A stretch of DNA of 64,000 bases from an uncultured Candidatus Saccharibacteria bacterium (GTDB lineage Bacteria > Patescibacteriota > Saccharimonadia > CAILAD01 > CAZGYV01), in contig CAZGYV010000001.1 of assembly GCA_964530725.1 (NCBI GenBank), positions 15,829-79,828 of the forward strand, given 5' to 3'. Shown piece by piece: positions 3,923-22,225 of the stretch. The position numbers and the translations under genes were made by a program. Under the pieces are notes generated by a model. It was not told where the DNA came from. It saw nothing but the letters and a program-made list of their open reading frames with translations, and searched no databases. Within the stretch, counting starts at the first letter, position 1. Every line of letters starts with the position of its first letter.

Positions 3923-4081
3923 TTGGAACGATATCCTTATGGAGTTCAGGCGACTCCATCACCTTATCAGGGGATTATCTCTGGCATAATCCATTCGCTA
4001 CGGTGATAGAACTAGTTTATGCTTGACACATAATGCTAATGCTTTTGTTATAGGCTTCTGAACCCTATAATACAGTGTAAT

Positions 4082-7000
4082 ATGTCTACATTACATAAAA
4101 GAGTATGGGGTAAAATCAAAAGCTACTTTGTAAGGGATGAAGCCGAGAAGCAAACACACCCCCTAAAGTCTCTCAGGCCAGCAAAGAATATTGATGGTCA
4201 CTCCGCTTATGTTGACGACATCGCTGAAGCGGTTGCAAATGATGACATTCTGAATATAGCCCTTACTGGCAGCTACGGTTCTGGTAAAAGTAGTATCCTC
4301 AGAGTCTTCAAGGATTCAACAAAGAAGAATAAAGTAGTCCAAATATCGTTCTCAAGCCTAGGGGCGAATATACAGGGTTATATCAATAAGTCTGAAGATG
4401 ATGAACACGAGAAGCTAAACAATCTCACAAACCTAATCCAAAAAGAGATAGTCAAACAGATACTCTTCAAGGAAAAGTACAAGAATATACCGTATTCAAA
4501 GTACAAGAGAGTCTCCAGCCCACGCTTGCCCCTAGTTTTTCTTAACGCATCATTAATATCTATAGTTCTGTTGGCCGTATCATTCGCAAACGGGTGGCTG
4601 GCTCAATTGTTTAAAGTTGCAGCCATTTCGGATTTCTGGTGGCAGGTAGCACTCTGTGCAGACCTATTCATTATCAGTACCTCGCTTATTGCTATCTTCG
4701 TGCTTACGCTATCTGGCAAAATACGGATAGATAAAATTGGTGCATCTTCAATATCATTATCACTCTCGGGAAGTGCAAGTTATTTTGACGAATACTTAGA
4801 TGAGATTATCTACTTCTTTGAAGCTGGACGATACAACGTGGTTATCTTTGAAGATATTGATAGGTTTGAGAGCCTTTATATTTTCGAGACCCTTCGACAG
4901 CTCAACACCATTCTGAATAACTCAGAGCAGATAAAACAACCCGTGACTTTCATCTACGCAATTAAAGACAGTATTTTCGCCAAAGAAGTTGTTGATGCTA
5001 AGAACGACCACAAAGAGCGAAGTGCAAACAGAACCAAGTTCTTTGACCTCATCATTCCTGTAGTTCCTTTCATTACTAATGTGAACTCACAAGACCACAT
5101 ACTTCAGGTTTTTGATAGCGAGTACCGAGACATCATCAGAGAGCCAGCCTCAGTAGTGGCAAAGCATATTACTGATATGCGTCTTGTGGTTAACATCTAT
5201 AACGAGTTTCTAATATTCAAGGATAAAGTTGTACTCCCCGACTCAGGCTTATCTCTGGATAAGTTATTTGCAGTTGTTGCTTACAAAAACTGGAATCTGG
5301 ATGAGTTTGAAAAAGTTAAAGATGGTGATAGTTCAATCGATAAGGTTATTGCTGCACACAGCAAATATGTTGACGATAGAATACGTACCATTAACTCTGA
5401 GATACGAAGCAAAGAAAGTGCCCTAAAGACTATCAATGCCATTGCTGAACGGTCACAGAGCTTAGGTAAGGTTCTTACCGACTATATAGCCGATGTATTG
5501 CGACAGGTGCAAGGTTCTGCTCAGTCCTATAGCCTTAACAGCACTTCTTATGACTTAGAAGATTTCACAACCGAAGATTTTTGGAGCGATATCATCAAAG
5601 GGGGTGAGACCAGTACTCTTATTGTCACCTATCGAGCATCAACTGGCTACACACAAAACCTTACACTGACGGCAGCCGACATCAGTAGTATTTGTAGCGA
5701 CAGCCTTGATAAAACCCAGTGGGATACAAAAGCAGCAGAAGCTATTGAAGACGAAATAGGAGTACTACGAGCCGAAGCTAATAAACTCCCATACCAAAGT
5801 ATCAAGGAACTCATTCAGGAATCACCAGAGTTTCTCGCTAAATTAAAGGAGCTCGATGGCGGTAAGGTTGTTGCTGACGAGGTAGGATGGCAACTCATTA
5901 AGGCTGGCTATATCGATACCGAATTCGTACACTACACCTCGCTATACTACAGCACCAGCATGAGCCTCAAAGCTCGTAGCTTCTTGCTAAATAATGTCCG
6001 ACTGAACAAACAGTCTTTGCATCACAAGTTTGAAAACGATGATGACATACAAGCACTTCTAGAAAAAATGGGCAGTACCTATCTTAATGATAAGAGCATG
6101 TACAACATCTCAATAGTTGATTACTTGCTCAGGAAGGATGACTCAAGAGTAGATAAGATAATAGCTAACTTGGCAGGCGGTGACGCTGACGACCTTCAAT
6201 TTATCAATGCATATGTGAAGGAGGGTTCTGAAGTAACCAAGTTTATCCAACAGCTTGCTGCACGATGGGATGGAATCTTTACGTATATTACAGGTGATAA
6301 CGAAATGGATGATAAAAAGAAGGGTCGTTTCATTAGCCTTGCATTAACTGCTGGTTCTGAGAGTATCAAGTATAAAACCAATCCATCCGTTAAAGGTTTT
6401 ATTGAGGCCAATAAAACAAACGTCCAGATACTTACAAACGATAACCAAGATAGCTCAGCCGTTGATGATGCTTGCCGATTGCTCATGCAGTTTGGAATTG
6501 AATTCGATACTCTTGATAATCTGAACGAGCAAGCAAAGGAAGCCGTAAAAGATTATGGTCTCTATACGGTCAATGAGCAGAACATGACATCTATCCTTGG
6601 AAGTCCAAGAGTGCCTTTGGATACAATCAAACGCACAAATGAATATGTCTACTCTCACTTGCTAGGGCATCTTGGTGAGTACGCAGACCTATTCCAGAAT
6701 CGAGCAGGCTCAGAATATGCACTTGCAGGCGAAGACGGATTTGAAGCAGTAATTGATGAGGTGTCAAAGATTTCGATGGATGACTTAGGATTAATTCTGG
6801 CTAATGCTGACCTGTCGAACTGTATCGTTCAAGATATTAATAAACTTGGTTCAGACACATGGCCTCTACTGGTTGAGAATGTCATTCTGTCCAACACTCT
6901 AAGTAACGTTCTGACATACTTTGAGCTGTCACATGCCGATGACAAGACAGTAATCAATGACCTGCTGGCTACATACCTTACTGAGGCTGAAACGGTTGTA

Positions 7001-7753
7001 CTTGATAAAGACTTTGCGGAGTATACTGCAGAAAATGTAAAGACCTTTGTTTTGGCCGTAGTAAATAGTTCAAAAATCGATGTGGAGACCACGGTTAATA
7101 TTGTCCATGATTGCTACACCGAAGACTACATTGACATATCAGATATTAAACCCCAAAACGGTAGCCTCTACGGTGCGTTGCTATCAAAGGACTGCATCGA
7201 AGATACGCAGGCGAACTTCGAGGCAATTAGAAACCTTTCTTGGGAAACGAAAAGCTCATACATAGCAAACTCCAAGAAGTTCTTAGAGTACATTGCAGCC
7301 CTCGCTCTCACTACGGACGAGCTAAACTCTATTGCTGAAGACGGCTCAATTCCTGATGCCGTTAACGAGTATATAGTCGATAACATCGTTGCTTATTCTG
7401 CTGAGTTATCTATCATGTCAGCTGCACACTTTGCCGAGTTTGCATTACGTAAGTCGAAGGTACTCAGTGCTGATTCACTTAAGGTTATTCTTGACGGAGC
7501 GGATAAGGAAACTAGCATTAAGCTCATAGGTCTAGCTTTAAATAATCTCGACTTTTCAAATATGCTCACACTCATGCCAGTTGTTGGTGGAGAGTATAAG
7601 AAGCTATCCGAGAAAAACAAACGACCATTATTTGAGAATACCGACTACAACTTAAACCTCATTGCCCGACTTAAAGAACTGGGCTTGGTGAGTAGTTATG
7701 AATTAAAAGATAATGAAACAAAAATAAAAGTAGTTATGAAGTCACGATGGTAG
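4082..7753 (+). CDS. KAP-family-like P-loop NTPase with transmembrane insert (1223 aa; YobI-like)
   Basis: Walker A LTGSYGSGKSS and Walker B-like VVIFEDIDRF are separated by two long hydrophobic helices (LVFLNASLISIVLLAVSFANGWLAQLF and WWQVALCADLFIISTSLIAIFVLTL). About 900 aa of unassigned, largely helical-looking sequence follows. Confidence 0.7.
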   Translation: MSTLHKRVWGKIKSYFVRDEAEKQTHPLKSLRPAKNIDGHSAYVDDIAEAVANDDILNIALTGSYGSGKSSILRVFKDSTKKNKVVQISFSSLGANIQGYINKSEDDEHEKLNNLTNLIQKEIVKQILFKEKYKNIPYSKYKRVSSPRLPLVFLNASLISIVLLAVSFANGWLAQLFKVAAISDFWWQVALCADLFIISTSLIAIFVLTLSGKIRIDKIGASSISLSLSGSASYFDEYLDEIIYFFEAGRYNVVIFEDIDRFESLYIFETLRQLNTILNNSEQIKQPVTFIYAIKDSIFAKEVVDAKNDHKERSANRTKFFDLIIPVVPFITNVNSQDHILQVFDSEYRDIIREPASVVAKHITDMRLVVNIYNEFLIFKDKVVLPDSGLSLDKLFAVVAYKNWNLDEFEKVKDGDSSIDKVIAAHSKYVDDRIRTINSEIRSKESALKTINAIAERSQSLGKVLTDYIADVLRQVQGSAQSYSLNSTSYDLEDFTTEDFWSDIIKGGETSTLIVTYRASTGYTQNLTLTAADISSICSDSLDKTQWDTKAAEAIEDEIGVLRAEANKLPYQSIKELIQESPEFLAKLKELDGGKVVADEVGWQLIKAGYIDTEFVHYTSLYYSTSMSLKARSFLLNNVRLNKQSLHHKFENDDDIQALLEKMGSTYLNDKSMYNISIVDYLLRKDDSRVDKIIANLAGGDADDLQFINAYVKEGSEVTKFIQQLAARWDGIFTYITGDNEMDDKKKGRFISLALTAGSESIKYKTNPSVKGFIEANKTNVQILTNDNQDSSAVDDACRLLMQFGIEFDTLDNLNEQAKEAVKDYGLYTVNEQNMTSILGSPRVPLDTIKRTNEYVYSHLLGHLGEYADLFQNRAGSEYALAGEDGFEAVIDEVSKISMDDLGLILANADLSNCIVQDINKLGSDTWPLLVENVILSNTLSNVLTYFELSHADDKTVINDLLATYLTEAETVVLDKDFAEYTAENVKTFVLAVVNSSKIDVETTVNIVHDCYTEDYIDISDIKPQNGSLYGALLSKDCIEDTQANFEAIRNLSWETKSSYIANSKKFLEYIAALALTTDELNSIAEDGSIPDAVNEYIVDNIVAYSAELSIMSAAHFAEFALRKSKVLSADSLKVILDGADKETSIKLIGLALNNLDFSNMLTLMPVVGGEYKKLSEKNKRPLFENTDYNLNLIARLKELGLVSSYELKDNETKIKVVMKSRW

Positions 7754-7919
7754 ACGTGGGGTGCGGTAGGGCTCGCCAAGCGTAGCGGCACAAGTCCTGT
7801 TTAGCGGGATACTACTTTATAGCATAAGCATGCCATAAGCAAAAAACGAAAACTCCATACCTCTGCATCTGTAAATTGGCGGATTTCTAGTAGTTTTTGG
7901 CTATGACTAACTATACGTA

Positions 7920-8414
7920 TTAGTAGCTTTTAGGAATAGCCTTACAAACTTCATCAAGAAGCTCATCAGGACTCATGTTGAGGTTTTGGTTTAAGTCTTT
8001 AAACTCCATAGTTATCATCACATAGACCATAGTCTGGAAGTTATTTGGGTGTTCTAGCTTCTCTGCAACTTGGGTTGTATATGCAGTTAGTCGTAATAGT
8101 TCGTCTGGCTTTTTGAATCCAGTTCTTGCAGAGACTGTCATAAGTCGCAACTCTTCCTTACTGGCATTAGGATTCTGGCGTTTATGCATGTCATACATCT
8201 TCTTTTGCGTCTTGGCTATTGAAACAGGACTACCTGCTTTTTTGAATAGTCCACCAATCCACTTGAAGATAGCAACAACCCAAAAGAACAGACCAAACCA
8301 TACAAGGATACCCGCAAACATTGAGGGTAGTAAATGGAATATACTAGGCAGCATTAAAGCTAACCCGATAAGGAACAGTTGATAAGGCTTAATACTTTTT
8401 CTTTGCTTCGACAT
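7920..8414 (-). CDS. hypothetical two-TM membrane protein (164 aa)
   Basis: Start MSKQRKSIKPYQ is preceded by an SD (ttAAGGAGaaaaacATG). Hydrophobic hairpin LFLIGLALMLPSIFHLL / FAGILVWFGLFFWVVAIF, followed by a soluble C-terminal domain. The 196-aa track ORF has an unsupported N-terminal extension. Confidence 0.55.
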   Translation of the reverse strand: MSKQRKSIKPYQLFLIGLALMLPSIFHLLPSMFAGILVWFGLFFWVVAIFKWIGGLFKKAGSPVSIAKTQKKMYDMHKRQNPNASKEELRLMTVSARTGFKKPDELLRLTAYTTQVAEKLEHPNNFQTMVYVMITMEFKDLNQNLNMSPDELLDEVCKAIPKSY

Positions 8415-8575
8415 GTTTTTCTCCTTAAAAATAAAAACGACACCACGCTTGGTGTCTAAACCAGTAACAGAGTTTTTAAGCCCGATTACTTCGCATGGTG
8501 CCGTTTTCAAGGCTTAAAACCACGCAAAATTACTTGCGGTACTCTATAACTGGTTTAGACTATTTCATTATATAA
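8415..8575 (-). promoter_or_regulatory. structured 5' leader: long closing stem, two internal hairpins, then a terminator-like hairpin abutting the SD
   Basis: Arms 8454-8473 and 8541-8560 pair 18/20. Inner stems are 8474-8482/8511-8519 (9 bp) and 8523-8527/8534-8538 (5 bp). Hairpin GACACCA-cgct-TGGTGTC (8439-8456) is followed on the minus strand by GTTTTTATTTTT and then AAGGAG-ATG. Confidence 0.45.
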
Positions 8576-8856
8576 CAAAAACACCCCCATGTTGCTCAAA
8601 TCACCCCTGAGCCCAAACGATATTTTGCGTTTAAAATCAAAAGTTGATGTTATGCCCATCTCGTAGATAAAAGTGCGTGTTTTGACGGTTTATTTACAGT
8701 ATGTTGGTCGATTATTTTGCTTCCAAAATTAAAAGATGAGCATAAGTCCACCTCACAAATATGAGCGAAAAAAATGAAGCAAGTTCAGCGGTATTTCCGA
8801 CCACTATGGAGTTTTTGGTTATCCACAGACACTTGTCAAAATAAACATAAAAGGTA

Positions 8857-8885
8857 TTGACTTTTTGGGCAAAGTTTGATATAAT
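8857..8885 (+). promoter_or_regulatory. near-consensus sigma70-type promoter
   Basis: TTGACT (8857-8862), a 17-nt spacer, then TATAAT (8880-8885). Confidence 0.6.
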
Positions 8886-8891
8886 ACCAAC

Positions 8892-9128
8892 AGTTAATGA
8901 CGTGGTACACATGTTAAATCTCTTAGCTAAATCATACACAGAACCGACACGGCGTGGTGTTTAGCTAGTTATTTGATAGTCCTATAGTCACTACTCTTGT
9001 TGGAAGCAATAAAGAGAGAGCATCAGAGTTTCGCCTTCGTGAAAATATGCCCATTCTCCTACGTTGTCCTACTAAATAATTAGTAAGATAACAGGCTGAT
9101 TTAGTACGCCCTCGGACGGGTGTTTTTT
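8892..9128 (+). ncRNA. candidate ~235-nt non-coding transcript (or leader of the recombinase operon)
   Basis: Runs from the consensus promoter at 8857-8885 to a weak terminator: CGCCC-tcggac-GGGTG plus TTTTTT (9107-9128). Only 6-17-codon ORFs lie inside. It contains several hairpins, e.g. CTACTAAataaTTAGTAAG. Confidence 0.35.
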
Positions 9129-9154
9129 ATATCTGCCAAAGAATAAGGGTTAAC

Positions 9155-9376
9155 ATGCCACGACAAAGAACATGGAGCGGTCAGATGCTCACAATATCAG
9201 ATAAACCTATCATTACCACAGGAGAAGCTCGCAAGATACTAGGCAAGGGTTACGAAGAGCTTTCAGATGAACACCTAATGGGAGTAATTGTTTCACTTTC
9301 TAAGATAGCAGACTATTTCCTGACTAGGATTAGTGTTCCAGAAAACTATAAGGTATGTGGTAAAATGGGGATATGA
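9155..9376 (+). CDS. small protein (73 aa), possible HTH/recombination directionality factor
   Basis: ATGA-coupled to the recombinase start. The segment ITTGEARKILGKGYEELSD looks like a helix-turn-helix. I recognise no family. Confidence 0.4.
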   Translation: MPRQRTWSGQMLTISDKPIITTGEARKILGKGYEELSDEHLMGVIVSLSKIADYFLTRISVPENYKVCGKMGI

Positions 9377-10971
9377 ATACGATGGATAAAAAAGAGCCAA
9401 TCAAAGTTTATGGTTATAAGCGTGTGTCTACTGAGGAGCAAGTTGATGGGATGTCTTTACATACTCAAGAGCTTGCAATTCAAGCCTACGCAGAGCAGCA
9501 CAATCTTGAGGTGGTGCATATCTTTCATGACGATGGAATATCCGCCAAAACAGCCAAGCGCCCGCAACTTCAAGAGATGCTCGCAAAACTCACAGCCAAA
9601 GATAACGAGGTGCGTGGTGTAGTTGTTTACAATCTCAGTCGTATCTCTCGTGATTTAGAGTCATACAGTCGTGATATAGGCTATCATCTTTCGGCAAAAG
9701 GCGTTCGTCTGTACTCTACAGTTGAAAACATTGACGATACACCAGAGGGTCGTTTGATGCGTAATATTGCACTCTCTATCCACCAGTACGATAACGATAC
9801 AAAAAGTCGAACAGTTAAAGACAATATGAAACAAGTTGCTCTTGAGGGTTGGTGGCAAGGCAATATCCCCTACGGATATAGCCGTGTTAAAGTACCGATT
9901 GGCATTAAGGACAAAGACGGTAAAACTAAGGAGCGTCTCACTCTCGAACCTGATAGCAATAACGACTTGAGCGACAAGATGCGTATGATGCTAGAGCGGT
10001 TCAGTGAGGGTGATTTGAAACAGTCCGAGCTTACTGATTATGCTGAGAGTATCGGCCTATACAGCCCAAAGGGTGAACGTTTTGCACCTCAGTCAATGAA
10101 TAACATTCTAAGAAATATTACCTATGCGGGCTTTGTGTGTAATAAGATGACAGACTTTGAACCTGTAAAGGCTAAACACGTAGGTCTTATCTCGCTTGAG
10201 ACATATTTACGTAATCAGGCTGTTCTTGATGGTCGTAAGCCTGATGAGGCGATGCCTCGCTTTACTGCTAGCTACCCTCTCAAGCACTCTCTGTTATGTA
10301 TTAACTGTCATAAACCCTTAACAGGTAGTGCACCTACTGGAGGTTCTGGTAAGAGCTCACCTCGCTATCACTGCACAAGATGTACGGGTACTGGCTCAAA
10401 AGGTCTTGATAGAACGAATGAGCTATTTGAAGCATTCTTAAACGATGTTACGCCTACAGATAAGATGATTAAGCTCTTTGATGTGATTGTACGCCGTATC
10501 GCCAAAGACAAGCTCTCAAACGTGAATAAGGCTATCAGCGATGTTAGAGACGATATGACCAAGATAGACACTGATATGCAGAAAGCACTTCAGTCTATGC
10601 TCGATGGCGATATCAGTAAGCAAGAGAAAGAAGACTACCAGTCGTCATTACGTATTAAGCGACTCAACCTAGAGGACGAACTTAATAAGCTACGAGACAT
10701 ACAGAGCCTCAATGAGTCTACTATTACCTATGTTTGTAACTTTATGGACGCTCCTGCTCGTATGTGGCAAGATGCAGACGCAGAGACAAAAGTCATCTTC
10801 CAACAGATGGTTACAGAGAACGGTATTGTATTCGACCTCAAGAACGAAAAGTTTGGAACGGACGGTTTGAGTATGTTTTACAGATTGAAAGACAACAAAA
10901 AAGACCCATCAAAGGCTGATGAGTCCCTTATGGTGATCCCACGGGGAATCGAACCCCGGTTACCAGGATGA
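9373..10971 (+). CDS. large serine recombinase (532 aa)
   Basis: Resolvase-type N-terminal domain (VYGYKRVSTEEQ with catalytic Ser; GISAKT..RPQLQEML; VVVYNLSRISRD). Recombinase domain (WQGNIPYGY). Zn-ribbon CINCH...YHCTRC. Coiled-coil C-terminal region. The last 41 nt overlap tRNA-Glu in antisense. Confidence 0.9.
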   Translation: MNTMDKKEPIKVYGYKRVSTEEQVDGMSLHTQELAIQAYAEQHNLEVVHIFHDDGISAKTAKRPQLQEMLAKLTAKDNEVRGVVVYNLSRISRDLESYSRDIGYHLSAKGVRLYSTVENIDDTPEGRLMRNIALSIHQYDNDTKSRTVKDNMKQVALEGWWQGNIPYGYSRVKVPIGIKDKDGKTKERLTLEPDSNNDLSDKMRMMLERFSEGDLKQSELTDYAESIGLYSPKGERFAPQSMNNILRNITYAGFVCNKMTDFEPVKAKHVGLISLETYLRNQAVLDGRKPDEAMPRFTASYPLKHSLLCINCHKPLTGSAPTGGSGKSSPRYHCTRCTGTGSKGLDRTNELFEAFLNDVTPTDKMIKLFDVIVRRIAKDKLSNVNKAISDVRDDMTKIDTDMQKALQSMLDGDISKQEKEDYQSSLRIKRLNLEDELNKLRDIQSLNESTITYVCNFMDAPARMWQDADAETKVIFQQMVTENGIVFDLKNEKFGTDGLSMFYRLKDNKKDPSKADESLMVIPRGIEPRLPG

Positions 10972-11005
10972 GAACCTGGCGTCCTAACCGCTAGACGATG
11001 GGACC
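10931..11005 (-). tRNA. tRNA-Glu (anticodon CUC), 75 nt with encoded CCA
   Basis: Manual cloverleaf: acceptor GGTCCCA/TGGGATC, D-arm GTCT-AGCGGTTA-GGAC, anticodon arm CCAGG-TTCTCAT-CCTGG, T-arm CGGGG-TTCGATT-CCCCG, discriminator A, then CCA. Confidence 0.9.
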
Positions 11006-11122: not shown

Positions 11123-12358
11123 ATGGCAAACAAAAAACAACTCCCAAAAAGTTTTGATATCTCGGTACGGCGTCGATCGGTTAAAACGACTGATAAGAAT
11201 GACTCGAGCCTAGCCGCCAGTCAGGCTGAAGAGTCCGGCAAGGGCTTGTCGACCACGAAAAGTGATGATGACAAGCTACTCTCCTCGCCTGCTAAAAAAC
11301 GCCTATCGAAAAAAGCCAAAATCATCATAGCTGTCGTGGCCGGCGTATTTGTGGTGGTGGCCATCGTGGCGACTATCTACTTTTTAAATAAGAGTAAGCC
11401 CCAGGCAAGTCGCACTCAGACTGGTGTCAAGGTCTCGCAACCACCGGCCAAGCCACCAACCGCACCCAGCCCCTTGACTGGCGTTGAAGTTGATCCAGCC
11501 GCTGCTAAGCAGCCGGTTGTGGCTGTGGTGGTAGAGAATCTCTACCCTAGCGCTCGTCCGCAATCCGGGCTATCCGATGCTGGCGTGGTTTACGAGGCTC
11601 TAGCTGAGGGCGGCATCACCCGCTATCTGGCCTTGTTTCAAGATCACCTGGCAGCTGATATCGGTCCGGTGCGCTCTTTGCGGACTTATTTTGTCGACTG
11701 GGGCTTGGAGCACAACGCGCCAGTGGCTCATGTTGGCGGCAATGCCGACGCGCTTGATCTCATTAAGCCGCTGGGCATGAAAAACCTCGATCAGTTTCAT
11801 AATGGCAGTTATTTCCGGCGCATAAATACCCGTGCCGCGCCGCATAATGTTTATATCAAAAGCGAGCAGATGAAAAAGCTGCTGAATGATCGCGGCTTTG
11901 GCGGACCGCCAGATTTTAAGCCGTGGCCGCGCAAAGACGACACTAAGTCGCAGAGCTTAACCGCCTCGACTATTGAAGTTAATTTCTCCGGTCCGGACTA
12001 TAAAGCCCGCTTCGACTACGATCCGGCCACCAACAGCTACACTCGCTTTATTCGCAATGCGGCTGATATCGATGCTAACACTAAGGCGCCGATTAAAACT
12101 AAGAACATCATCGCGATGTATATGCCGACGCAATTCGGCGTTACTCGAATCGGCGAGTCGACTGTCGTCATGCAGACGGTCGGCAGCGGCAAGGCGGTGA
12201 TTTTCACAGATGGCGTGGCGACCGAAGCTACCTGGAAAAAAACTGACCACAAGGCACGTACTCAATTTTTAGACGCTAACGGCGCCGAGATCAAGCTCAA
12301 TCGAGGCCAAACCTGGGTGTCGGTGGTACCGGTCGGTAAAAGCGTTAGCTATAAATAA
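11123..12358 (+). CDS. DUF3048-family secreted/membrane-anchored protein
   Basis: N-terminal TM anchor (IIIAVVAGVFVVVAIVATIYF). Motifs PVVAVVVENLYPSARPQSGLSDAGVVYEALAEGGITRYLALFQ and GPVRSLRTYFVDW are typical of DUF3048 (YerB-like) proteins. Confidence 0.75.
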   Translation: MANKKQLPKSFDISVRRRSVKTTDKNDSSLAASQAEESGKGLSTTKSDDDKLLSSPAKKRLSKKAKIIIAVVAGVFVVVAIVATIYFLNKSKPQASRTQTGVKVSQPPAKPPTAPSPLTGVEVDPAAAKQPVVAVVVENLYPSARPQSGLSDAGVVYEALAEGGITRYLALFQDHLAADIGPVRSLRTYFVDWGLEHNAPVAHVGGNADALDLIKPLGMKNLDQFHNGSYFRRINTRAAPHNVYIKSEQMKKLLNDRGFGGPPDFKPWPRKDDTKSQSLTASTIEVNFSGPDYKARFDYDPATNSYTRFIRNAADIDANTKAPIKTKNIIAMYMPTQFGVTRIGESTVVMQTVGSGKAVIFTDGVATEATWKKTDHKARTQFLDANGAEIKLNRGQTWVSVVPVGKSVSYK

Positions 12359-12787
12359 TTAATTACTGATATTGACAGTCGTGGTAGTGGAGTTGGTCAC
12401 AGCAGCGTTACCACCATTGCCTGATTGAGCTGACTGACTGGAATTATTGCTGACTGAGACATTGGTCGAGCCGTCTTCGTGCTGAACAGTCGAGCTGTGC
12501 GTCGAGGAGACGGCACCCTCACCTGTTTCGCTCTGCTCACTTTTTTGCTCGATAGTGACTACCGGGTCTTGGCTTGGTTGCTCCATTTGCGGGTTCTCCT
12601 TTGTATCCGGTAGTTTAACGGCGGGCTTGATGGTGGTCTGTGTCGCAACTAGGCTCTGCGTGGCGGCCAGACTCACTCCGCCAAGAATGGCGAGTACAAA
12701 AAATACAGCGCCAATCTTGGTCCATAGTTGATAGGTTGGATTAGAGTGAATCACTATCGAACTCCTCCCCTGAATAATATTGTACAC
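12359..12787 (-). CDS. secreted Asn/Ser/Thr-rich protein with SipW-type-looking signal (start uncertain)
   Basis: Signal anchor WTKIGAVFFVLAILGGVSLAATQSLVATQT. The C-terminus ...SGNGGNAAVTNSTTTTVNISN parallels the C-terminal module of the upstream SipW ORF. Confidence 0.5.
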   Translation of the reverse strand: MYNIIQGRSSIVIHSNPTYQLWTKIGAVFFVLAILGGVSLAATQSLVATQTTIKPAVKLPDTKENPQMEQPSQDPVVTIEQKSEQSETGEGAVSSTHSSTVQHEDGSTNVSVSNNSSQSAQSGNGGNAAVTNSTTTTVNISN

Positions 12788-12820
12788 GATAAAAATTGTC
12801 TGTAAGAAATCTTGGATTGT

Positions 12821-13744
12821 TTACGGCTGAATGTTGACAGTCGTATTGGTGTTGTTCGAATTTGTCGCCTCTCCGCCGCTGCTGGTTTGCTGATTATTGT
12901 TGATAATATTGATATTATTGGTGTTTTCCTCATAAATCGAGCAGTTGTCATTAAATGTAATTTCATTAATCGAGCCCGGGCCGGTATTAGTGATTGTGGC
13001 GCTATTTTCTCCTTGCCCGCAAGGATTGTTACCGCCCTGCGAGTTGACTGATATCGTGTTGCCAATCAGGCTAGCCTGCGAAAAAAGAGCTGCCCAGCCT
13101 ACGCCGCTAGCGGCTATAAAGATGAAAAACACAAAGACGGCGCGTTTTATCAGCCCATCTATACTGGAAGGATGCTTCCTGGGGCTTGCTTGGTCGGACG
13201 GGTGGTTCTGCGGAGGTTTATTGTCGTGATCGTTTTTTTGATTTTTCGGCTCAACCTCGGGGTGCTGAAGTGATCGCCGCAGCAGCCTAATTTCATCAAA
13301 AATTATAAACGCGGCCGGTATAAAGACAAAAATGATTAGTAGCGGCCAACCTCGGGCATAGCTGAACGCTTGGCCGATTTTTGGATAATGCCAAATTACT
13401 TTACCGACAACATTGCCGCCCATGATCTCTTGATCGGCTACTTGATTTGCGTCACCCTTGGTGATGAGAGTTGGCAAGCCATTGCTTTTTATTTCGACGA
13501 CGCGGTGAGTAATGGTTTGTTTCGGATTATTGGGGTTGATATAGGTAACGACATCACCGGATTTTAGTTGCCTAATCGGCTCGCGCTTGATGACTATCAG
13601 CGAGCCTTGCGGGATGGCGGGGTCCATACTGCCGGTTAGTACCGACATGGCTTTGAGGCCGGTTACAGGCAACAGAAAGACCGCGAGTATGGCCCCGCTG
13701 ACAACACAGATCGCAGCGGCTATAATTTTGATAGCTTTGATCAT
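12821..13744 (-). CDS. sipW: signal peptidase I, SipW/archaeal type, fused to an Asn-rich substrate-like C-terminal module
   Basis: LTGSMDPAI (catalytic Ser), ITHRVVEI (His) and TKGDAN, with N- and C-terminal TM helices within aa 1-155. Residues 199-307 form a second signal-anchor plus an ITNTGPGS...NTNTTVNIQP module. Confidence 0.75.
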   Translation of the reverse strand: MIKAIKIIAAAICVVSGAILAVFLLPVTGLKAMSVLTGSMDPAIPQGSLIVIKREPIRQLKSGDVVTYINPNNPKQTITHRVVEIKSNGLPTLITKGDANQVADQEIMGGNVVGKVIWHYPKIGQAFSYARGWPLLIIFVFIPAAFIIFDEIRLLRRSLQHPEVEPKNQKNDHDNKPPQNHPSDQASPRKHPSSIDGLIKRAVFVFFIFIAASGVGWAALFSQASLIGNTISVNSQGGNNPCGQGENSATITNTGPGSINEITFNDNCSIYEENTNNINIINNNQQTSSGGEATNSNNTNTTVNIQP

Positions 13745-13796
13745 GGTTTAAATTCCGCTCATACTTTATAAATTTATTATTAAGGTTTTATTTTAT

Positions 13797-14333
13797 TTAA
13801 GGTTGTGTGCCGGTAAACACGACATCAAAATTGTCAATGGTCGCCTGCGTGCCAGTAACAGCATCAGTGTCCACCTTGATTACGAGCTTGTAATTACTTG
13901 TCACACCAGCGTTGATCGTTTCTACTGCCACATTGCTGTTAATTAGATTGGCTAGTGTTGTGGTAACGACATTGCTGTCGTCTAGCCGGTTGATTTTAAC
14001 GTGAACTTTAGCAAAGTCAGTGAAGTTCGAGTAAGTTGGCACTACTGGTACATGAGCGGTTACGCCAAGATTGACGCCGCCGTTGTTTTTGAGGTCAAAC
14101 AGGAATGGCAGAGTATCATTTCCAGGTACAACATTGGTCCAGCTATTACCTTGGGCAGTCGAACCAAAAGTGCCAGTTGTATTGATCTGCAAGTCGGCCG
14201 AAGCGGTCGACAGCGTGTTGCTCGTCAAAGTAGCAGTTGAGCCTAGGTTCGCGAAGGTCACGCCTACTACCAGCGCCATAGTAGCACCAATAGAAACGAT
14301 TGCTCGCGAGATAGCCGCGCGCTTAGTCACCAT
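13797..14333 (-). CDS. TasA/camelysin-like protein with SipW-dependent-type signal peptide
   Basis: ATG MVTKRAAISRAIVSIGATMALVVGVTFANLGSTATLTSNTLSTASADLQI is preceded by an SD (GGAAGGGGGTGAtatgtATG). The N-terminal pattern (basic-hydrophobic-TFAxL...N.L...DL) is that of SipW-cognate signals, and the gene lies directly upstream of sipW. Confidence 0.6.
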   Translation of the reverse strand: MVTKRAAISRAIVSIGATMALVVGVTFANLGSTATLTSNTLSTASADLQINTTGTFGSTAQGNSWTNVVPGNDTLPFLFDLKNNGGVNLGVTAHVPVVPTYSNFTDFAKVHVKINRLDDSNVVTTTLANLINSNVAVETINAGVTSNYKLVIKVDTDAVTGTQATIDNFDVVFTGTQP

Positions 14334-14506
14334 ACATATCACCCCCTTCCTATATAGATTAGCCTCACAAAAGCTTAAGCTTTATTATACACCTTTCACA
14401 ATAATTACAATGAATTTTTGTACAGACTTATATAAATGCTAAAAAACATACTTTGCGCTATAATTGTAGTTAGAATGATTGTTATGCTATCTCAAGGATC
14501 ACTCCC

Positions 14507-15862
14507 ATTAAAAAGCCAGCACAAACCGGCTCCACTTTAGTCGAAATTGTTATTAGTTTGAGCATCGTGTCGGTGGTTATTTTGGCTGTCTTGTCGGTGA
14601 TGGTGTTTAATATGCAGATCATATCAAGCGGCAAATCAAGAGCTCTGGCGATGGCTTTGGCAAACGAAAAATTGGAAAATCTGCGCAATATGCCCTATGA
14701 CAGCTTGGCTACAGTGCATGGTCCGATCTATCCAGGAGGCTCTATCGTTGACGACGAGGATGTGACTGTTGGCGGTATCGCCATGGTTGTGCACACCGAT
14801 ATAAGTTATAACGACGATCCATTTGATGGCAATTTTGCCGGTACTATCGCCGGTAAGCCGCAGGATTTTTATCCCTATGACTACAAGAAAGTTACCATCA
14901 CGATCTACCTGAAGTCAGGCAATCGCAAACTGGCCAATATTAGTACCGACGTGGCCGGCAAAGTAGCCGAGACAGCCACGAACACCGGCATCATCTTGAT
15001 TAAAGTAATAGACGCCAATGGCAATCCGGTCGATGGCGCTTCCGTTCACCTAACAAACCCTACTCCAAGTCCGGCAGTTAATATCACGACCACGACCGAT
15101 AATCAGGGCCAGGTATTGATTCCCAAGATGCCACCGGACAGTGGCAACGGCTATCATCTGACAGCGACGAAAGCGGGCTTTTCGACTGATCAGACCTATC
15201 CCGTTTCCGTTCAAACACCCTCTCCGACTCAGCCCGATTTTAGTGTTCAGGCTCAACAGGTCGTAACCCAGACGTTGGCTATTGATCAGCTGGCTAATAC
15301 TCTAACAGTTAAAGCTATTGATATCAGTGGTAATCCAATTAGCGGGGCTGCTGTTAATATCCATGGTCAAAAAACTATTAATTCTAGCCCGATAGTCTAT
15401 AAGTATAGTTCGGTGCAGACGACAAATGGCAGCGGCGAGATCAGCCTGACAGCTTTGGAGTGGGATTCTTATGACTTGAGTGTTAGTGGGCACAGTATTC
15501 TCGCCTCCTCCCCTTACAAGCCCTTCGCTCTCAATCCTAGCGCTAGTCTGACTGTTACATTGACACTGGACACCCCGTCGACAAGCCGACCAATTATCGA
15601 AGCGGTCACGCCGAGTAGCGCGGTCTCCGGCAGCCCTAATGTCCAAATTGATATCACCGGACAGAACTTAAATGGTGCAACCTTTTTACTGCGCAAATCG
15701 GGTAGCGCTGATATTGTAGCGGGCAACCTGTCTTCACCCGATTCCAGTACGCTTTCTGGCACTCTTGATCTATCCGGCGCGGCAGTTGGCAACTGGGACA
15801 TTGTGGTGACAAAAAGTGGCCAATCAACCACTCAGTCAGGAGGATTTAATGTCGCTAACTAA
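14507..15862 (+). CDS. prepilin-type minor pilin with CarboxypepD_reg/Ig-like repeats (start codon non-canonical or frameshifted)
   Basis: The in-frame N-terminus (I)KKPAQTG|STLVEIVISLSIVSVVILAV is a class III signal (G-1, E+5). Downstream repeats include IKVIDANGNPVDGASVHL and VKAIDISGNPISGAAVNI. No ATG/GTG/TTG lies upstream in frame; an ATT at 14507 follows an AAGGA SD. Confidence 0.65.
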   Translation: MKKPAQTGSTLVEIVISLSIVSVVILAVLSVMVFNMQIISSGKSRALAMALANEKLENLRNMPYDSLATVHGPIYPGGSIVDDEDVTVGGIAMVVHTDISYNDDPFDGNFAGTIAGKPQDFYPYDYKKVTITIYLKSGNRKLANISTDVAGKVAETATNTGIILIKVIDANGNPVDGASVHLTNPTPSPAVNITTTTDNQGQVLIPKMPPDSGNGYHLTATKAGFSTDQTYPVSVQTPSPTQPDFSVQAQQVVTQTLAIDQLANTLTVKAIDISGNPISGAAVNIHGQKTINSSPIVYKYSSVQTTNGSGEISLTALEWDSYDLSVSGHSILASSPYKPFALNPSASLTVTLTLDTPSTSRPIIEAVTPSSAVSGSPNVQIDITGQNLNGATFLLRKSGSADIVAGNLSSPDSSTLSGTLDLSGAAVGNWDIVVTKSGQSTTQSGGFNVAN

Positions 15863-19355: not shown

Positions 19356-19685
19356 TTACAGAATGCCAGTTGGCTCTATTTCCAGCCAAGTGCCGCCTTC
19401 TTTGCGAAAAAGCAGCACCTTACTGGTCGTCTCAGTTGGGTCGTAAATATTTTCAATTCGCTGGGCGCCGCCACTGCGATGGTAATGGGTTTTTTTGTCG
19501 GCAACCCGTGGCCTAGTAACGCGTTCAAACTTATATTCCGTGCCGCTGCGCTCAAAAACTACGCAAGTCACGGTCTCTTCTAGTTCGTGAGCGTCAGACA
19601 AGGCGTGTTTATCAACTTTGTGTGATAGAATACCGTATTTTTGATCAATGACGTCAAGCAGCTCTTCCCAGGCGCGGTCGCTCAT
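19356..19685 (-). CDS. hypothetical protein (109 aa)
   Basis: Clean ORF that overlaps the upstream gene's stop by 4 nt. I recognise no family. Confidence 0.5.
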   Translation of the reverse strand: MSDRAWEELLDVIDQKYGILSHKVDKHALSDAHELEETVTCVVFERSGTEYKFERVTRPRVADKKTHYHRSGGAQRIENIYDPTETTSKVLLFRKEGGTWLEIEPTGIL

Positions 19686-22225
19686 AAGCTCGTGGCGATC
19701 TTGATTATTTGGTCTTGAGTTAGGCCGTGCTGATTGCCCTCTAAGCGGTACCAGTTGCCATTATTAATCCAGCTAGCTTGATTGTTGCCATACATGTAAA
19801 TTGTAAGCCCTTGGGCCTGCAGAGCTAAATACTTACTGGATTTTGGCGTAACGTAGTTTTCGGCCAGAGCTTGGGAGTCCCAGTCTGTCTTGGTGGTTAC
19901 GACGTCAATTTTACGCTTGTTGTTGTCGCCTTTAAGGCTGTAGCTAACGAGCCCAGGCGAGGTTTTGATATTGCTACCTAGCTGCCAGCCGCTTGGAATA
20001 TAGCCTGGCATACTGGCATTGATACCTGCTTTGCCGGCTGCCACTTTAAACGCCAGATTAGGGTAATTTACTTGCCAGACATAGACGCCGACCAAAACTA
20101 GCCCGACGACGCTGAGCAACGCGCTGCTGGCTGTAAAGCTGTGGCCGATTTTAGCTGGCGACGTTTTGGATTTTTCGGCCGCGCGCTCATGCACTAGCTT
20201 GAGGGCTTCTTCTTCGGTCAGCGGCTTATTTTCGAAATCAACTTCTTCTTTGGGTGGCTCGACTACCGGGTAGTTAATTTGATGGCTTGGCTTGTAGGCC
20301 GCGCCAGGAGTAATGCCATCGGGTGAAGTTGGCAGTACGAATGGTGTTGAAGCCTTGGGCGCGTTGCTTGCCTGGTTCGCCGGAGCTGGTTGTTCGACAG
20401 GCTTAGCTGGAATAATGTCTAGTGATCGCAAACCGCCCGATGGACCTGATACAGGCATTGGCTGTGGACTTGGCTTTGGCTGGGCGGGCTTGAGCGCAAT
20501 TGATTCTTGAGGCTTGCCTGGCTCTGCTTGCGATTGAGGTTTTTGGTTGATAGTGTCAACCGAGCCTGTGCCAGGCTTACTGACTACCTTAGTGGATTCA
20601 AGCTGTTTAAACTCTTCGTCGCTAAATACTGGCTCATCGTCAACATCAAGCGATGCTATTTCACTGCCAATATTCTCATGTGATTCCTTGGCTTGGGTAT
20701 CAGCTGCTGTCGGACTGGGTGCGGTAGCAGCATCGAGCGCGTTGATCTTTGCTGGCTCTAATTCTTTGGTATCCTTAACGCTAGCTTGACTCGGCGAAAC
20801 ATTTTGCGCGCCCGTGATATCGGACTTGGGTTGTACTTGGGATCCAGATTGTGTTGGCGTAGTTTGCTTTGAGCTTACCGGCTTGGCCGTGCTAGTTTCG
20901 ATTATTTTCGCTAAGTCATCAAGAGCTTCCTTGGCACTTTGGGCTGCAGGCAAGCTAACTGGTTTAGTGGTGGCTACAGGCGAAGAAGCTGCAGGCATTG
21001 GCATTGGGTTGTCCGTAGGTTTAGGTGCTGTTTGTGGTCGCGAATCAATCTTAATCGGCTCGGCGGACTGAATGGGGGTGGAGCTAGCTAAGTCACTAAA
21101 GGTAGTCGACGCCGGGCCATTGTTTTTAGTTGGTACTGTTTTTGTTGCCGGGCTAGCTAGTGGTGGCGAGGAGGTTACTTCGGTTTTTGGTGTGTCACTC
21201 GCTTTCGTTTCAATAGCTTGGGCTTGCGGAGCCGTGGTGCGAAATTTATTGACGAGCTCTGATTGAGGGACGGCGGCAGCTTTTTCTAGGCGCTGTTGGC
21301 GGGAGGGCACTGTAATTTGAAAATCTCGCCGCTCCAAATGTTTAGCTTGTTCTGGTGGCTGGCTAATGTTGACTGTGCCGCTGGCTACTGGTTTAGAGTT
21401 CGGTTCGATTGACTTTTTGCCACTGGCAACCTCTTCGACGACTCGTGAGATGCGCTCGCTCGGAATTGGCTTGACTGCTTCTATCACAGCACTTTCTATT
21501 AGAGCACGGTCATCAATGGTGTTAGGGGATTTTTTAGCCGGCTCTTTTGCCACACTTTCCTGGGTATCGCCGGAAACGTCACTTCGTCGCGTTTCAATAT
21601 CTCCTATTGGTGAATGCGGAATTATTGGCACCAAGGGCTTATTATCATCCGGCACTGGCAGGTTACTGGCTAGCTCTCGCGTAGTTTTCTGAGCTAGTTT
21701 CTCGGCGATTTCTTTGACTATGCGATCGTTTTTCTTGTGGCTGGCAATGACAGCTTGATCAATATTTTTAAACGTCTCAAGTTTATCATTGAGGTTGTCA
21801 ATTTTTTGCATGTTACTAGTTTGCGTGGCTTTAGCTGGAGTAGCTATGCCGGACTTTGGCTGGACAATAGGCTTACTTATCGGTGTGACGGGCTTAGGTG
21901 GAATCGGAGCGGCTTGATGATGGACGGGGTTAACCGGCGGCTTTACGGGCGGCGGAGGCGGCGGTACCGTGGCTTTTTGCGGCAACGGAATCTCTACTTT
22001 GGACGGATTGGGTTGAGTAACTAGAGGTATATTGTGTGTCGGCTGTTGCGGCACTTTTGCCACAGGTAAAACTGATGAGACCGGCTTAGCCTCTTCTTTG
22101 ACCTCTGGACTTGGTTTTATACCACCTGGCTGCCAGGGGGTGCCGCAATTAGCACAAAAAACCTTGCCAGCAATTACAATCCTATCTTTTTCTTCGCAGT
22201 CTGGACATTGAACCATATGAAACAC
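19682..22225 (-). CDS. zinc-ribbon / long disordered linker / single-TM / C-terminal globular domain membrane protein
   Basis: N-terminal CPDC...CANC zinc ribbon, then ~650 aa of P/S/T/A/Q-rich low complexity, a TM helix (ALLSVVGLVLVGVYVW), and a ~150-aa C-terminal domain reminiscent of DUF4367-type anti-sigma ectodomains. The start may be the 4th codon (MVQCPDC, 22216). Confidence 0.6.
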   Translation of the reverse strand: MFHMVQCPDCEEKDRIVIAGKVFCANCGTPWQPGGIKPSPEVKEEAKPVSSVLPVAKVPQQPTHNIPLVTQPNPSKVEIPLPQKATVPPPPPPVKPPVNPVHHQAAPIPPKPVTPISKPIVQPKSGIATPAKATQTSNMQKIDNLNDKLETFKNIDQAVIASHKKNDRIVKEIAEKLAQKTTRELASNLPVPDDNKPLVPIIPHSPIGDIETRRSDVSGDTQESVAKEPAKKSPNTIDDRALIESAVIEAVKPIPSERISRVVEEVASGKKSIEPNSKPVASGTVNISQPPEQAKHLERRDFQITVPSRQQRLEKAAAVPQSELVNKFRTTAPQAQAIETKASDTPKTEVTSSPPLASPATKTVPTKNNGPASTTFSDLASSTPIQSAEPIKIDSRPQTAPKPTDNPMPMPAASSPVATTKPVSLPAAQSAKEALDDLAKIIETSTAKPVSSKQTTPTQSGSQVQPKSDITGAQNVSPSQASVKDTKELEPAKINALDAATAPSPTAADTQAKESHENIGSEIASLDVDDEPVFSDEEFKQLESTKVVSKPGTGSVDTINQKPQSQAEPGKPQESIALKPAQPKPSPQPMPVSGPSGGLRSLDIIPAKPVEQPAPANQASNAPKASTPFVLPTSPDGITPGAAYKPSHQINYPVVEPPKEEVDFENKPLTEEEALKLVHERAAEKSKTSPAKIGHSFTASSALLSVVGLVLVGVYVWQVNYPNLAFKVAAGKAGINASMPGYIPSGWQLGSNIKTSPGLVSYSLKGDNNKRKIDVVTTKTDWDSQALAENYVTPKSSKYLALQAQGLTIYMYGNNQASWINNGNWYRLEGNQHGLTQDQIIKIATSL

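Follow-up and report, generated by a model that had tools for sequence, protein, structure and literature searches.

A Saccharimonadia operon which encodes a TasA-like secreted beta-sandwich protein and a SipW-type signal peptidase with a substrate-like extension

The minus-strand operon at 12359-14342 of the window analysed here (the whole stretch of 64,000 nucleotides, from a genome of Saccharimonadia, which belong to the Patescibacteria or candidate phyla radiation, CPR) encodes a secreted TasA-like beta-sandwich protein, which we call P1, together with its own SipW-type signal peptidase, P2, and a small Asn/Ser/Thr-rich protein, P3. Operons of this type are known, while the fusion in P2, in which the peptidase is followed behind a third transmembrane (TM) helix by a motif resembling the cleavage site and mature N-terminus of P1, is not, and no description of such a peptidase-substrate-motif fusion was found in the literature searched. 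We give an even chance to the reading that the operon is the Saccharimonadia version of the loci which combine a fibre subunit with a dedicated signal peptidase, such as tapA-sipW-tasA of Bacillus and the AbpX and Tafi loci of archaea, with the fused peptidase in a TapA-like role.

Saccharibacteria live attached to host bacteria and, to our knowledge, only their type IV pili have so far been tied to this attached lifestyle. If the above reading is true, these episymbiotic CPR cells would have, in addition to type IV pili, another surface filament, one which depends on Sec and SipW and is a new candidate for host attachment or matrix building.

The operon and its signal peptidase

All three genes are real, and the features observed for them in a previous reading of this DNA (the original prediction) are present. 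P1, P2 and P3 appear as three co-directional open reading frames (ORFs) in the ORF list of the window. The P1 ORF (13797-14342) probably starts at ATG 14333, behind the ribosome-binding site (RBS) GGAAGGGGG, which yields a protein of 178 residues; P2 (12821-13744) has 307 residues; and the P3 ORF (12359-12787) probably starts at GTG 12754, with the RBS GGGGAGGAG 7 nt before it, to give 131 residues. The intergenic gaps measure 52 and 66 bp, and no convincing terminator was found between the three genes. Both of the signal strings which had been quoted for the operon are in place (P1 ...ALVVGVTFA/NLGSTATL and P3 ...GGVSLA/ATQSLVATQT, the slash marking here and below the predicted cleavage site), and the three-gene operon stands with refined starts. 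The P3 stop codon directly abuts that of a convergent plus-strand DUF3048 gene (11123-12358), with zero bases between them (12358-12359), and no terminator-like site was found at this junction. The features of the operon are as follows.

13797-14333, minus strand: P1, 178-residue secreted beta-sandwich protein, candidate fibre subunit, from a divergent family without annotation that is related to the TasA superfamily
14250-14333, minus strand: signal peptide of P1 (residues 1-28, MVTKRAAISRAIVSIGATMALVVGVTFA), with predicted cleavage after Ala28
14184-14249, minus strand: P1 residues 29-50 (NLGSTATLTSNTLSTASADLQI), predicted mature N-terminus and candidate donor strand
13265-13744, minus strand: P2 residues 1-160, comprising TM1, the endoplasmic reticulum (ER)/archaeal (SipW)-type signal peptidase I domain and TM2 (TIGR02228, PF10502, conserved residues and AlphaFold2 model)
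13160-13264, minus strand: P2 residues 161-195, hydrophilic Pro/Lys-rich linker between TM2 and TM3, predicted to be cytoplasmic and disordered (AlphaFold2 confidence, pLDDT, below 60 and no secondary structure)
13049-13159, minus strand: P2 residues 196-232, TM3 and substrate-like motif ...FIAASGVGWA/ALFSQASLIGNTIS (P1 N-terminal profile and conservation)
12821-13048, minus strand: P2 residues 233-307 and stop, predicted extracellular Asn/Ser/Thr-rich tail with two Cys (ITNTGPGSxN … VxNxNxQxxxSG … TTVNI), conserved across long forms
12359-12754, minus strand: P3, 131 residues, with an N-terminal hydrophobic helix closing in GGVSLA/A, an acidic/polar linker and a C-terminal Asn/Ser/Thr module (RBS GGGGAGGAG, homologues)

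The original prediction labelled the middle gene as a SipW-type signal peptidase, and the label is correct as a type, because P2 passes the TIGR02228 model (88.7 bits against a cutoff of 51.85, over residues 9-153), keeps the Ser-His-Asp set and has a SEC11-like fold. It also passes PF10502, the Pfam Peptidase_S26 model (27.5 against 22.9), while it fails NF046067, the equivalog model of Bacillus SipW (70.3 bits against 190); judged by these scores, P2 is SipW-like by type and not an orthologue of Bacillus SipW. Residues S39 (in GSM), H80 (in THR) and D98/D104 (in GDAN…D) are 98-100% conserved among 121 aligned sequences and constitute the Ser-His-Asp set of ER, archaeal and SipW-type enzymes and not the bacterial Ser-Lys dyad, the catalytic roles being those established for SipW and SEC11. 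In the AlphaFold2 model a catalytic core with pLDDT above 90 lies between an N-terminal membrane anchor (helix 2-23) and a C-terminal TM helix (133-160), in agreement with hydropathy, and a further helix follows at 196-212. The best Foldseek matches of this model in the PDB are human SEC11C and SEC11A, at 26-27% identity. SipA/LepA of Streptococcus pyogenes, a signal-peptidase-fold protein in a surface-filament locus, is also among the structural matches; but SipA lacks catalytic residues and acts with sortases, whereas P2 keeps its Ser, His and Asp, and neither a sortase nor an LPXTG motif is found here.

A SipW-type peptidase gene lies directly downstream of one or more P1 homologues in 13 of the 14 evaluable distinct loci (the window, L001, L002, L006, L007, L010, L011, L016, L018, L020, L021, L022 and L023). 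L009 breaks this rule, and L008 runs into the edge of its contig. The peptidase and P1 had been proposed to be a cognate set, and this adjacency supports the proposal; P1 is the probable cognate substrate of the P2 peptidase. TasA-superfamily loci, which are established in Bacillota, Actinomycetota and archaea, usually, though not universally, hold a TIGR02228 peptidase and accessory proteins, and the dedicated signal peptidase I of the P1 loci is the same genomic association. In some loci two or three tandem P1 paralogues precede a single peptidase (L016, 2320-3532; L020, 3758-5558), and L022 (4821-8885) holds two subunit-peptidase pairs, whose peptidases are of the long form in one case and of the short form in the other, which suggests sets of major and minor subunits.

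We consider it very improbable that P2 is the general housekeeping type I signal peptidase of a reduced genome, placed beside P1 by chance. CPR genomes are small, public records call P2-type proteins only 'signal peptidase I', and a profile search detected no other S26 peptidase within the window, although 64 kb is too small a span to establish the absence of a LepB-type enzyme. Against this, the pairing with P1 holds in nearly all of the loci although the genes around the pair differ completely between them, L022 has the pair twice, and the P2 enzyme bears the motif of its neighbour P1.

In composition the operon resembles tapA-sipW-tasA of B. subtilis (sipW-tasA-calY in B. cereus), where a secreted beta-sandwich subunit likewise stands beside a dedicated Ser-His peptidase and a minor accessory protein. 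Its order, however, is subunit-peptidase-accessory, and there is no TapA homologue, the TapA-like strand segment being fused to the peptidase behind the third TM helix; characterised SipW enzymes do not continue, as P2 does past TM2, with a linker, a third helix, a substrate-like motif and an Asn-rich tail. In the archaeal AbpX and Tafi loci, too, the subunit is accompanied by a TIGR02228 peptidase and by minor or anchor proteins, and the archaea with TasA-superfamily fibres (P. abyssi AbpX, P. calidifontis AbpA, Haloarcula/Natrinema Tafi, the S. acidocaldarius 0406 thread, Pyrodictium CanX) share the monoderm envelope. Unlike them, the organism here is of a bacterial CPR lineage, and P1 has no sequence match to their PDB chains; the AbpX peptidase is described with ten TM helices, whereas P2 has three and a substrate-like tail, and Tafi use the Tat pathway. 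Since TasA-superfamily loci are established and earlier work (PMC9245690) noted homologues of PF12389 in Patescibacteria, this kind of locus is already known. What is new is a large Saccharimonadia subunit family which escapes current models, and the fusion of the peptidase with a substrate motif.

The P1 family and its relation to TasA

A word-indexed search returned 8 relatives of P1, while an exhaustive search by profile brought up 637 cluster representatives (E<=1e-3; 73 reach E<=1e-30), most of them 180-215 residues long. Only one of ten family members looked up in public records carries a name there, which is 'hypothetical protein', and the relatives found in the genome collection with a 9-sequence alignment occupy 7 loci, all of Saccharimonadia. 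Among 143 homologues, T26 and A28 of the signal peptide are at least 90% conserved. Conservation in the family peaks immediately afterwards, at residues 29-50, a stretch which aligns with TasA 28-47, the region which forms the donor strand in the TasA fibre (PMC9674648). The case for a possible donor-strand polymerisation of P1 comes from the conservation of this post-cleavage segment.

The AlphaFold2 model of P1 is a beta-sandwich (core pLDDT ~90) with a jelly-roll or immunoglobulin (Ig)-like core resembling the solved members of the TasA superfamily. Its top Foldseek matches include FimA (E 3e-5), the 0406 thread of S. acidocaldarius and AbpA. A comparison of the structure of 13797-14333 with TasA had been proposed; the beta-sandwich is there, with two archaeal filament proteins, the 0406 thread and AbpA, among the leading matches, and TasA does not appear in the top 50. 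The best matches are chaperone-usher pilins (FimA, CooA, CfaB), in which an Ig-like subunit is completed by a donor strand. These pilins, however, belong to diderms and depend on a chaperone in the periplasm and an usher in the outer membrane, for which no genes are present here, and the likeness is one of fold only, at 12-15% identity.

A possible sequence link to TasA emerged from profile-profile comparison with hhalign, against a set made of TasA, its sequence verified against PDB 8AUR, and four plasmid-borne TasA/CalY proteins. The 143-sequence P1 family matched this set with 84% probability (P 7e-6), and adding a bridging protein from locus L024 raised this to 93% (P 3e-7), while a reversed control gave 0.2%. 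The match spans P1 18-89 and TasA 17-80 and covers only 63-64 columns, that is, the signal peptide and about the first 60 mature residues. It superimposes the A28/N29 site of P1 on the A27/A28 cleavage site of TasA, whose mature form begins at A28 (PDB 8AUR), and aligns the following N-terminal strand motif. By eye and in hhalign the P1 motif, GVTFA/NLxSTATLTxNT, is a variant of the TIGR04088 motif, GGTWA/AFNDxxxxxATF. Furthermore, some of the 143 family members match known models weakly, the commonest being TIGR04088 (14 members, best 3.4e-4) and PF12389 (9 members, best 2e-5), with BsaA in two members and TasA in one. P1 is shorter than Bacillus TasA (150 mature residues against 234) and lacks its helical insertions.

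Several results weigh against a TasA relationship, or against a fibre made in this way. Even with the threshold relaxed to E<=1, P1 itself matches none of the models of Pfam and NCBIfam, and this includes PF12389 (Peptidase_M73), NF046066 (TasA), CalY and TIGR04088. Its family profiles, built from 9 and from 143 homologues, found no TasA-superfamily member among PDB sequences, only de novo Ig designs and noise, and in structure TasA is missing as described above. Most of the profile-profile signal lies in the signal peptide and cleavage region, and once signal peptides are removed the hhalign probability drops to 17% (P 1.4e-3). The conserved residues behind the cleavage site, moreover, could be recognition determinants for the peptidase and not a donor strand.

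The loss of signal without signal peptides also speaks for a different reading, namely that P1 is a secreted or surface Ig-like protein (an adhesin, a matrix protein or a cell-wall-associated protein) which needs a dedicated SipW-type peptidase, does not polymerise and forms no filament. Six family members match choice-of-anchor D, and others match Big or FlgD Ig domains. On the other hand, the family is most conserved right behind the cleavage site, where TasA has its donor strand, the top structural matches are enriched in subunits of donor-strand filaments, and the tandem paralogues beside one peptidase in L016 and L020 resemble major and minor subunit sets. We regard the non-polymerising protein as unlikely.

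As to family membership, in our reading P1 represents a divergent TasA-superfamily branch, outside the TasA/camelysin family as it is currently modelled. The description of P1 as TasA/camelysin-like in the original prediction thus survives as a remote link, through hhalign and a few weak matches of family members, and not as a direct match to PF12389, TIGR04088 or TasA; of the profile searches it proposed, the one with TIGR02228 succeeded for P2 and those with PF12389/M73 and TIGR04088 left P1 unmatched. Since the P1 family, with at least 637 cluster representatives, is invisible to the Pfam and NCBIfam models, surveys based on PF12389 undercount TasA-like systems in CPR.

The extension of P2, P3 and a possible mechanism

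P2 is about 130 residues longer than a canonical SipW. Behind TM2 and the linker, the helix modelled at 196-212 (TM3) leads into a segment which shares with the signal peptide and N-terminus of P1 the motif 'GVxΦA/xLxSxAxLxxNTIS', and residues 196-232 look like an internal SipW-type signal peptide with a donor-strand-like segment. A profile of 42 positions made from the P1 N-terminus (consensus …LVTGVTFAALQSQATLTGNTISTATADLQI) matches P2 209-235 with E 2.9e-5, the sole match outside P1 among 639 ORFs. With the same profile (E<=0.01) the equivalent region was recognised in 24 of 59 long-form P2 homologues and in none of the 61 short forms. The common plan of the long forms, in 32 aligned sequences, runs from the peptidase through TM2, linker and TM3 to '[GT]x[YRW]A/xLxSxAxLTGNxIS', a variable region, 'ITNTGPGSxN' and 'VxNxNQxxxSG…NxNxT'; A218, just before the predicted cleavage site, is at least 90% conserved in them, and so are N282 and Q286 of the tail. 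TM1 would run from inside to outside, TM2 back and TM3 outwards again, which would place the motif outside the membrane beside the active site. An explanation of P2 as two genes or a frameshift was rejected, as it is a single ORF and its architecture is conserved in dozens of homologues.

The four long-form relatives which bear an organism name in the collection are all of Saccharimonadia. Locus L024 encodes a fused peptidase with an internal GTTKALFSDQAKIEGNSVS (GTTKALFSDQ…) beside a protein which matches PF12389 and the TasA/CalY profile (E 3e-9), and locus L025 is similar; therefore the fusion occurs beside recognisable camelysin-family genes too.

The 75-residue tail of P2, 49% of which is Ser, Thr and Asn, matches no Pfam or NCBIfam family, and AlphaFold2 models it with low confidence as beta strands, with no confident structure. 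A curli-like or amyloid repeat was tried for the Asn-rich module and rejected, there being no Curlin or other family match. The module (ITNTGPGSxN … VxVxNxNxQxAxSGxA…GNTxGGxAxSGxAxNxNxT…I, again matching neither Pfam nor NCBIfam) recurs as the tail of fused peptidases (window 12824-13048; L010, L016, L018 and L020), and a related repeat (…NGAGSENxA…VxQSNxANxGNxVxTxANTGGNxANxNTGG…) forms a separate secreted protein of 199 residues in L024 (1845-2444). Many long-form SipW-type peptidases close with a lamin-tail domain (PF00932) behind the Asn-rich module, which makes them 'signal peptidase I' proteins of 415-497 residues (for example P0165, P0169 and P0176; L001 6678-7976; L020 5589-7016).

P3 was described as Asn/Ser/Thr-rich, which agrees with the 54% of Ser, Thr and Asn in its tail. 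It matches no family in Pfam or NCBIfam; one homologue of 91% identity was found database-wide, and a syntenic one of 38% identity (E 4e-15) is present in L002; P3 is a real gene which evolves fast. Over its C-terminal ~40 residues it is similar to the end of the P2 tail beyond what composition would give (Smith-Waterman z 5.7, a score reached by 0 of 2000 shuffles), while composition-adjusted BLASTP between P3 and P2 gave no significant result; the module seems, on this alignment, to be paralogous to the end of the P2 tail. TapA homology was found in neither, as P3 and the P2 tail match no Pfam or NCBIfam family.

The original prediction gave the operon three SipW-type signal peptides. Taken together, the window ORFs of 60 residues or more hold 32,238 residues, in which the pattern G[VIA][STG][FLWY]A turns up 5 times, and three of these occurrences, in what is a post hoc test, are P1 24-28, P2 214-218 and P3 26-30, each closing a hydrophobic helix. 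The shared cleavage pattern therefore holds for all three proteins, and in P2 it belongs to a further copy of the motif which had not been quoted but agrees with the stated number of three signal peptides. For P3 the wider claim is not supported, as likeness ends with these five residues: the 42-position profile does not match P3, which lacks a P1-like strand beyond the cleavage pattern, and its assignment as a SipW-type substrate is not sustained. P3 is probably a second minor or accessory component.

The mechanism which we propose follows the B. subtilis analogy, in which the donor strand of TasA is formed by residues 28-38 and the N-terminus of TapA resembles that strand and nucleates fibres (PMC9674648, PMC10151520). 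P1 would be exported by Sec, and the membrane-anchored Ser-His peptidase P2 would cut it at A28/N29 and so expose its conserved N-terminal segment, NLGSTATLTSNTLS. This segment would then enter the beta-sandwich of the next P1 as a donor strand, in the manner of residues 28-38 of TasA, giving an extracellular filament that needs no chaperone. The appendage of P2, either self-cut or kept anchored in the membrane, may offer the first donor strand to P1, in the part of TapA, and so nucleate or anchor the fibre at the very enzyme which matures its subunits, a SipW-TapA fusion by function. P3 may act as a second accessory protein. Here, as in Bacillus TapA, the accessory element would bear a copy of the N-terminal strand of the subunit.

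In its full form the proposal is that in Saccharimonadia and some other uncultured lineages a SipW-type peptidase and a TapA-like primer form one fused protein, which cuts or displays the C-terminal donor-strand segment that it carries, and nucleates and anchors a chaperone-free fibre of an unrecognised branch of the TasA superfamily; this is tentative, and we think it on the whole unlikely. Two observations tell against the mechanism proposed above. Only the 24 of 59 long-form peptidases mentioned above reach E<=0.01 with the motif profile, and short-form peptidases occur without the appendage and without a P3-like gene (L006, L007 and L021), which means that the system can do without the appendage.

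The same short forms, which still pair with P1 homologues, would also fit an extension which has nothing to do with nucleation: either self-processed cargo, such as an Asn-rich or lamin-tail surface domain, or a TM3 anchor with a pseudo-substrate motif that regulates the active site. The region behind the motif is highly variable, with an Asn-rich module, Pro/Thr linkers and, in many homologues, a lamin-tail domain, and the tail module is present in P3 without a donor-like segment. But motif conservation runs ~14 residues past the predicted P2 cleavage site and mirrors the mature N-terminus of P1 (xLxSxAxLxxNTIS), which exceeds what the -3/-1 positions of a cleavage site need, and the relation of the P2 extension to P1 is that of the TapA N-terminus to the TasA N-terminus. 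We hold an extension unrelated to nucleation to be rather unlikely. If the fusion were only self-processed cargo, the finding would reduce to a divergent but ordinary SipW-substrate operon. The fusion of peptidase and substrate motif offers a directly testable hypothesis on the priming and anchoring of donor-strand fibres in the absence of a chaperone, and it connects SipW-type enzymes with the N-terminal strand motif in the manner of a 'Rosetta stone'.

The pilin-like neighbour and other features of the window

Upstream of P1 lies a divergent pilin-like operon, separated from it by the following feature.

14334-14506, either strand: spacer of 173 bp, 69% AT, shared with the pilin-like operon, with candidate back-to-back promoters

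Its length to 14507 is 164 bp from GTG 14342 and 173 bp from ATG 14333, so the 164-bp shared promoter region of the original prediction corresponds to the GTG start. Each strand has one perfect TATAAT, at 14389-14384 (minus) and 14459-14464 (plus), as candidate -10 elements; a sigma-70 consensus scan of the spacer gave no full match and counts not above those of shuffles, which leaves the promoters themselves as candidates.

The first pilin-like gene encodes a prepilin-type leader, KKPAQTG/STLVEIVISL, which is in frame only with a start at ATT 14507. Within 14474-14560 the first ATG, GTG or TTG is at 14558, downstream of the leader, and no canonical start exists back to the in-frame stop at 14471. 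ATT 14507 is a likely start codon, because it sits 8 nt behind AAGGA and no canonical start is available upstream. The second gene reaches 17 bits with N_methyl, below the cutoff of 21.2.

Functional coupling and co-regulation of the P1 operon with these genes through the shared spacer, as originally suggested, is in our judgement improbable. The AT-rich spacer has its TATAAT on both strands, and in the 68%-identical relative L002 both gene sets lie on the sides that they occupy in the window. In L002, however, four genes (~4.6 kb) lie between P1 and the pilin operon, no homologue of the pilin operon was found within 5-6 kb of the operon in 12 other distinct loci, and the promoter scan did not exceed shuffle expectation. 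The pilin-like operon and the DUF3048 gene are common only to the L002 lineage. The linkage to pili is not conserved, given the four genes between in L002 and the missing pilin operon near the 12 other loci; the pilin-like operon is a neighbour and not part of the system.

Elsewhere in the window, 4000-11005 is a low-GC island (GC 0.40-0.41 against ~0.48 elsewhere). Among its genes are those of a 1223-residue YobI-like P-loop nucleoside triphosphatase (4082-7753; PF20693, E 7e-101) and of a large serine recombinase (9373-10971). At its 3' end the recombinase gene overlaps a tRNA-Glu(CTC) on the opposite strand (10931-11005), and the island looks like a mobile element integrated at a tRNA gene. 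A minus-strand ORF of 847 residues at 19682-22225 has only a weak C-terminal match to DUF4367, and the region 20001-22000 shows strong strand asymmetry, with a GC skew of +0.15 and an AT skew of -0.27.

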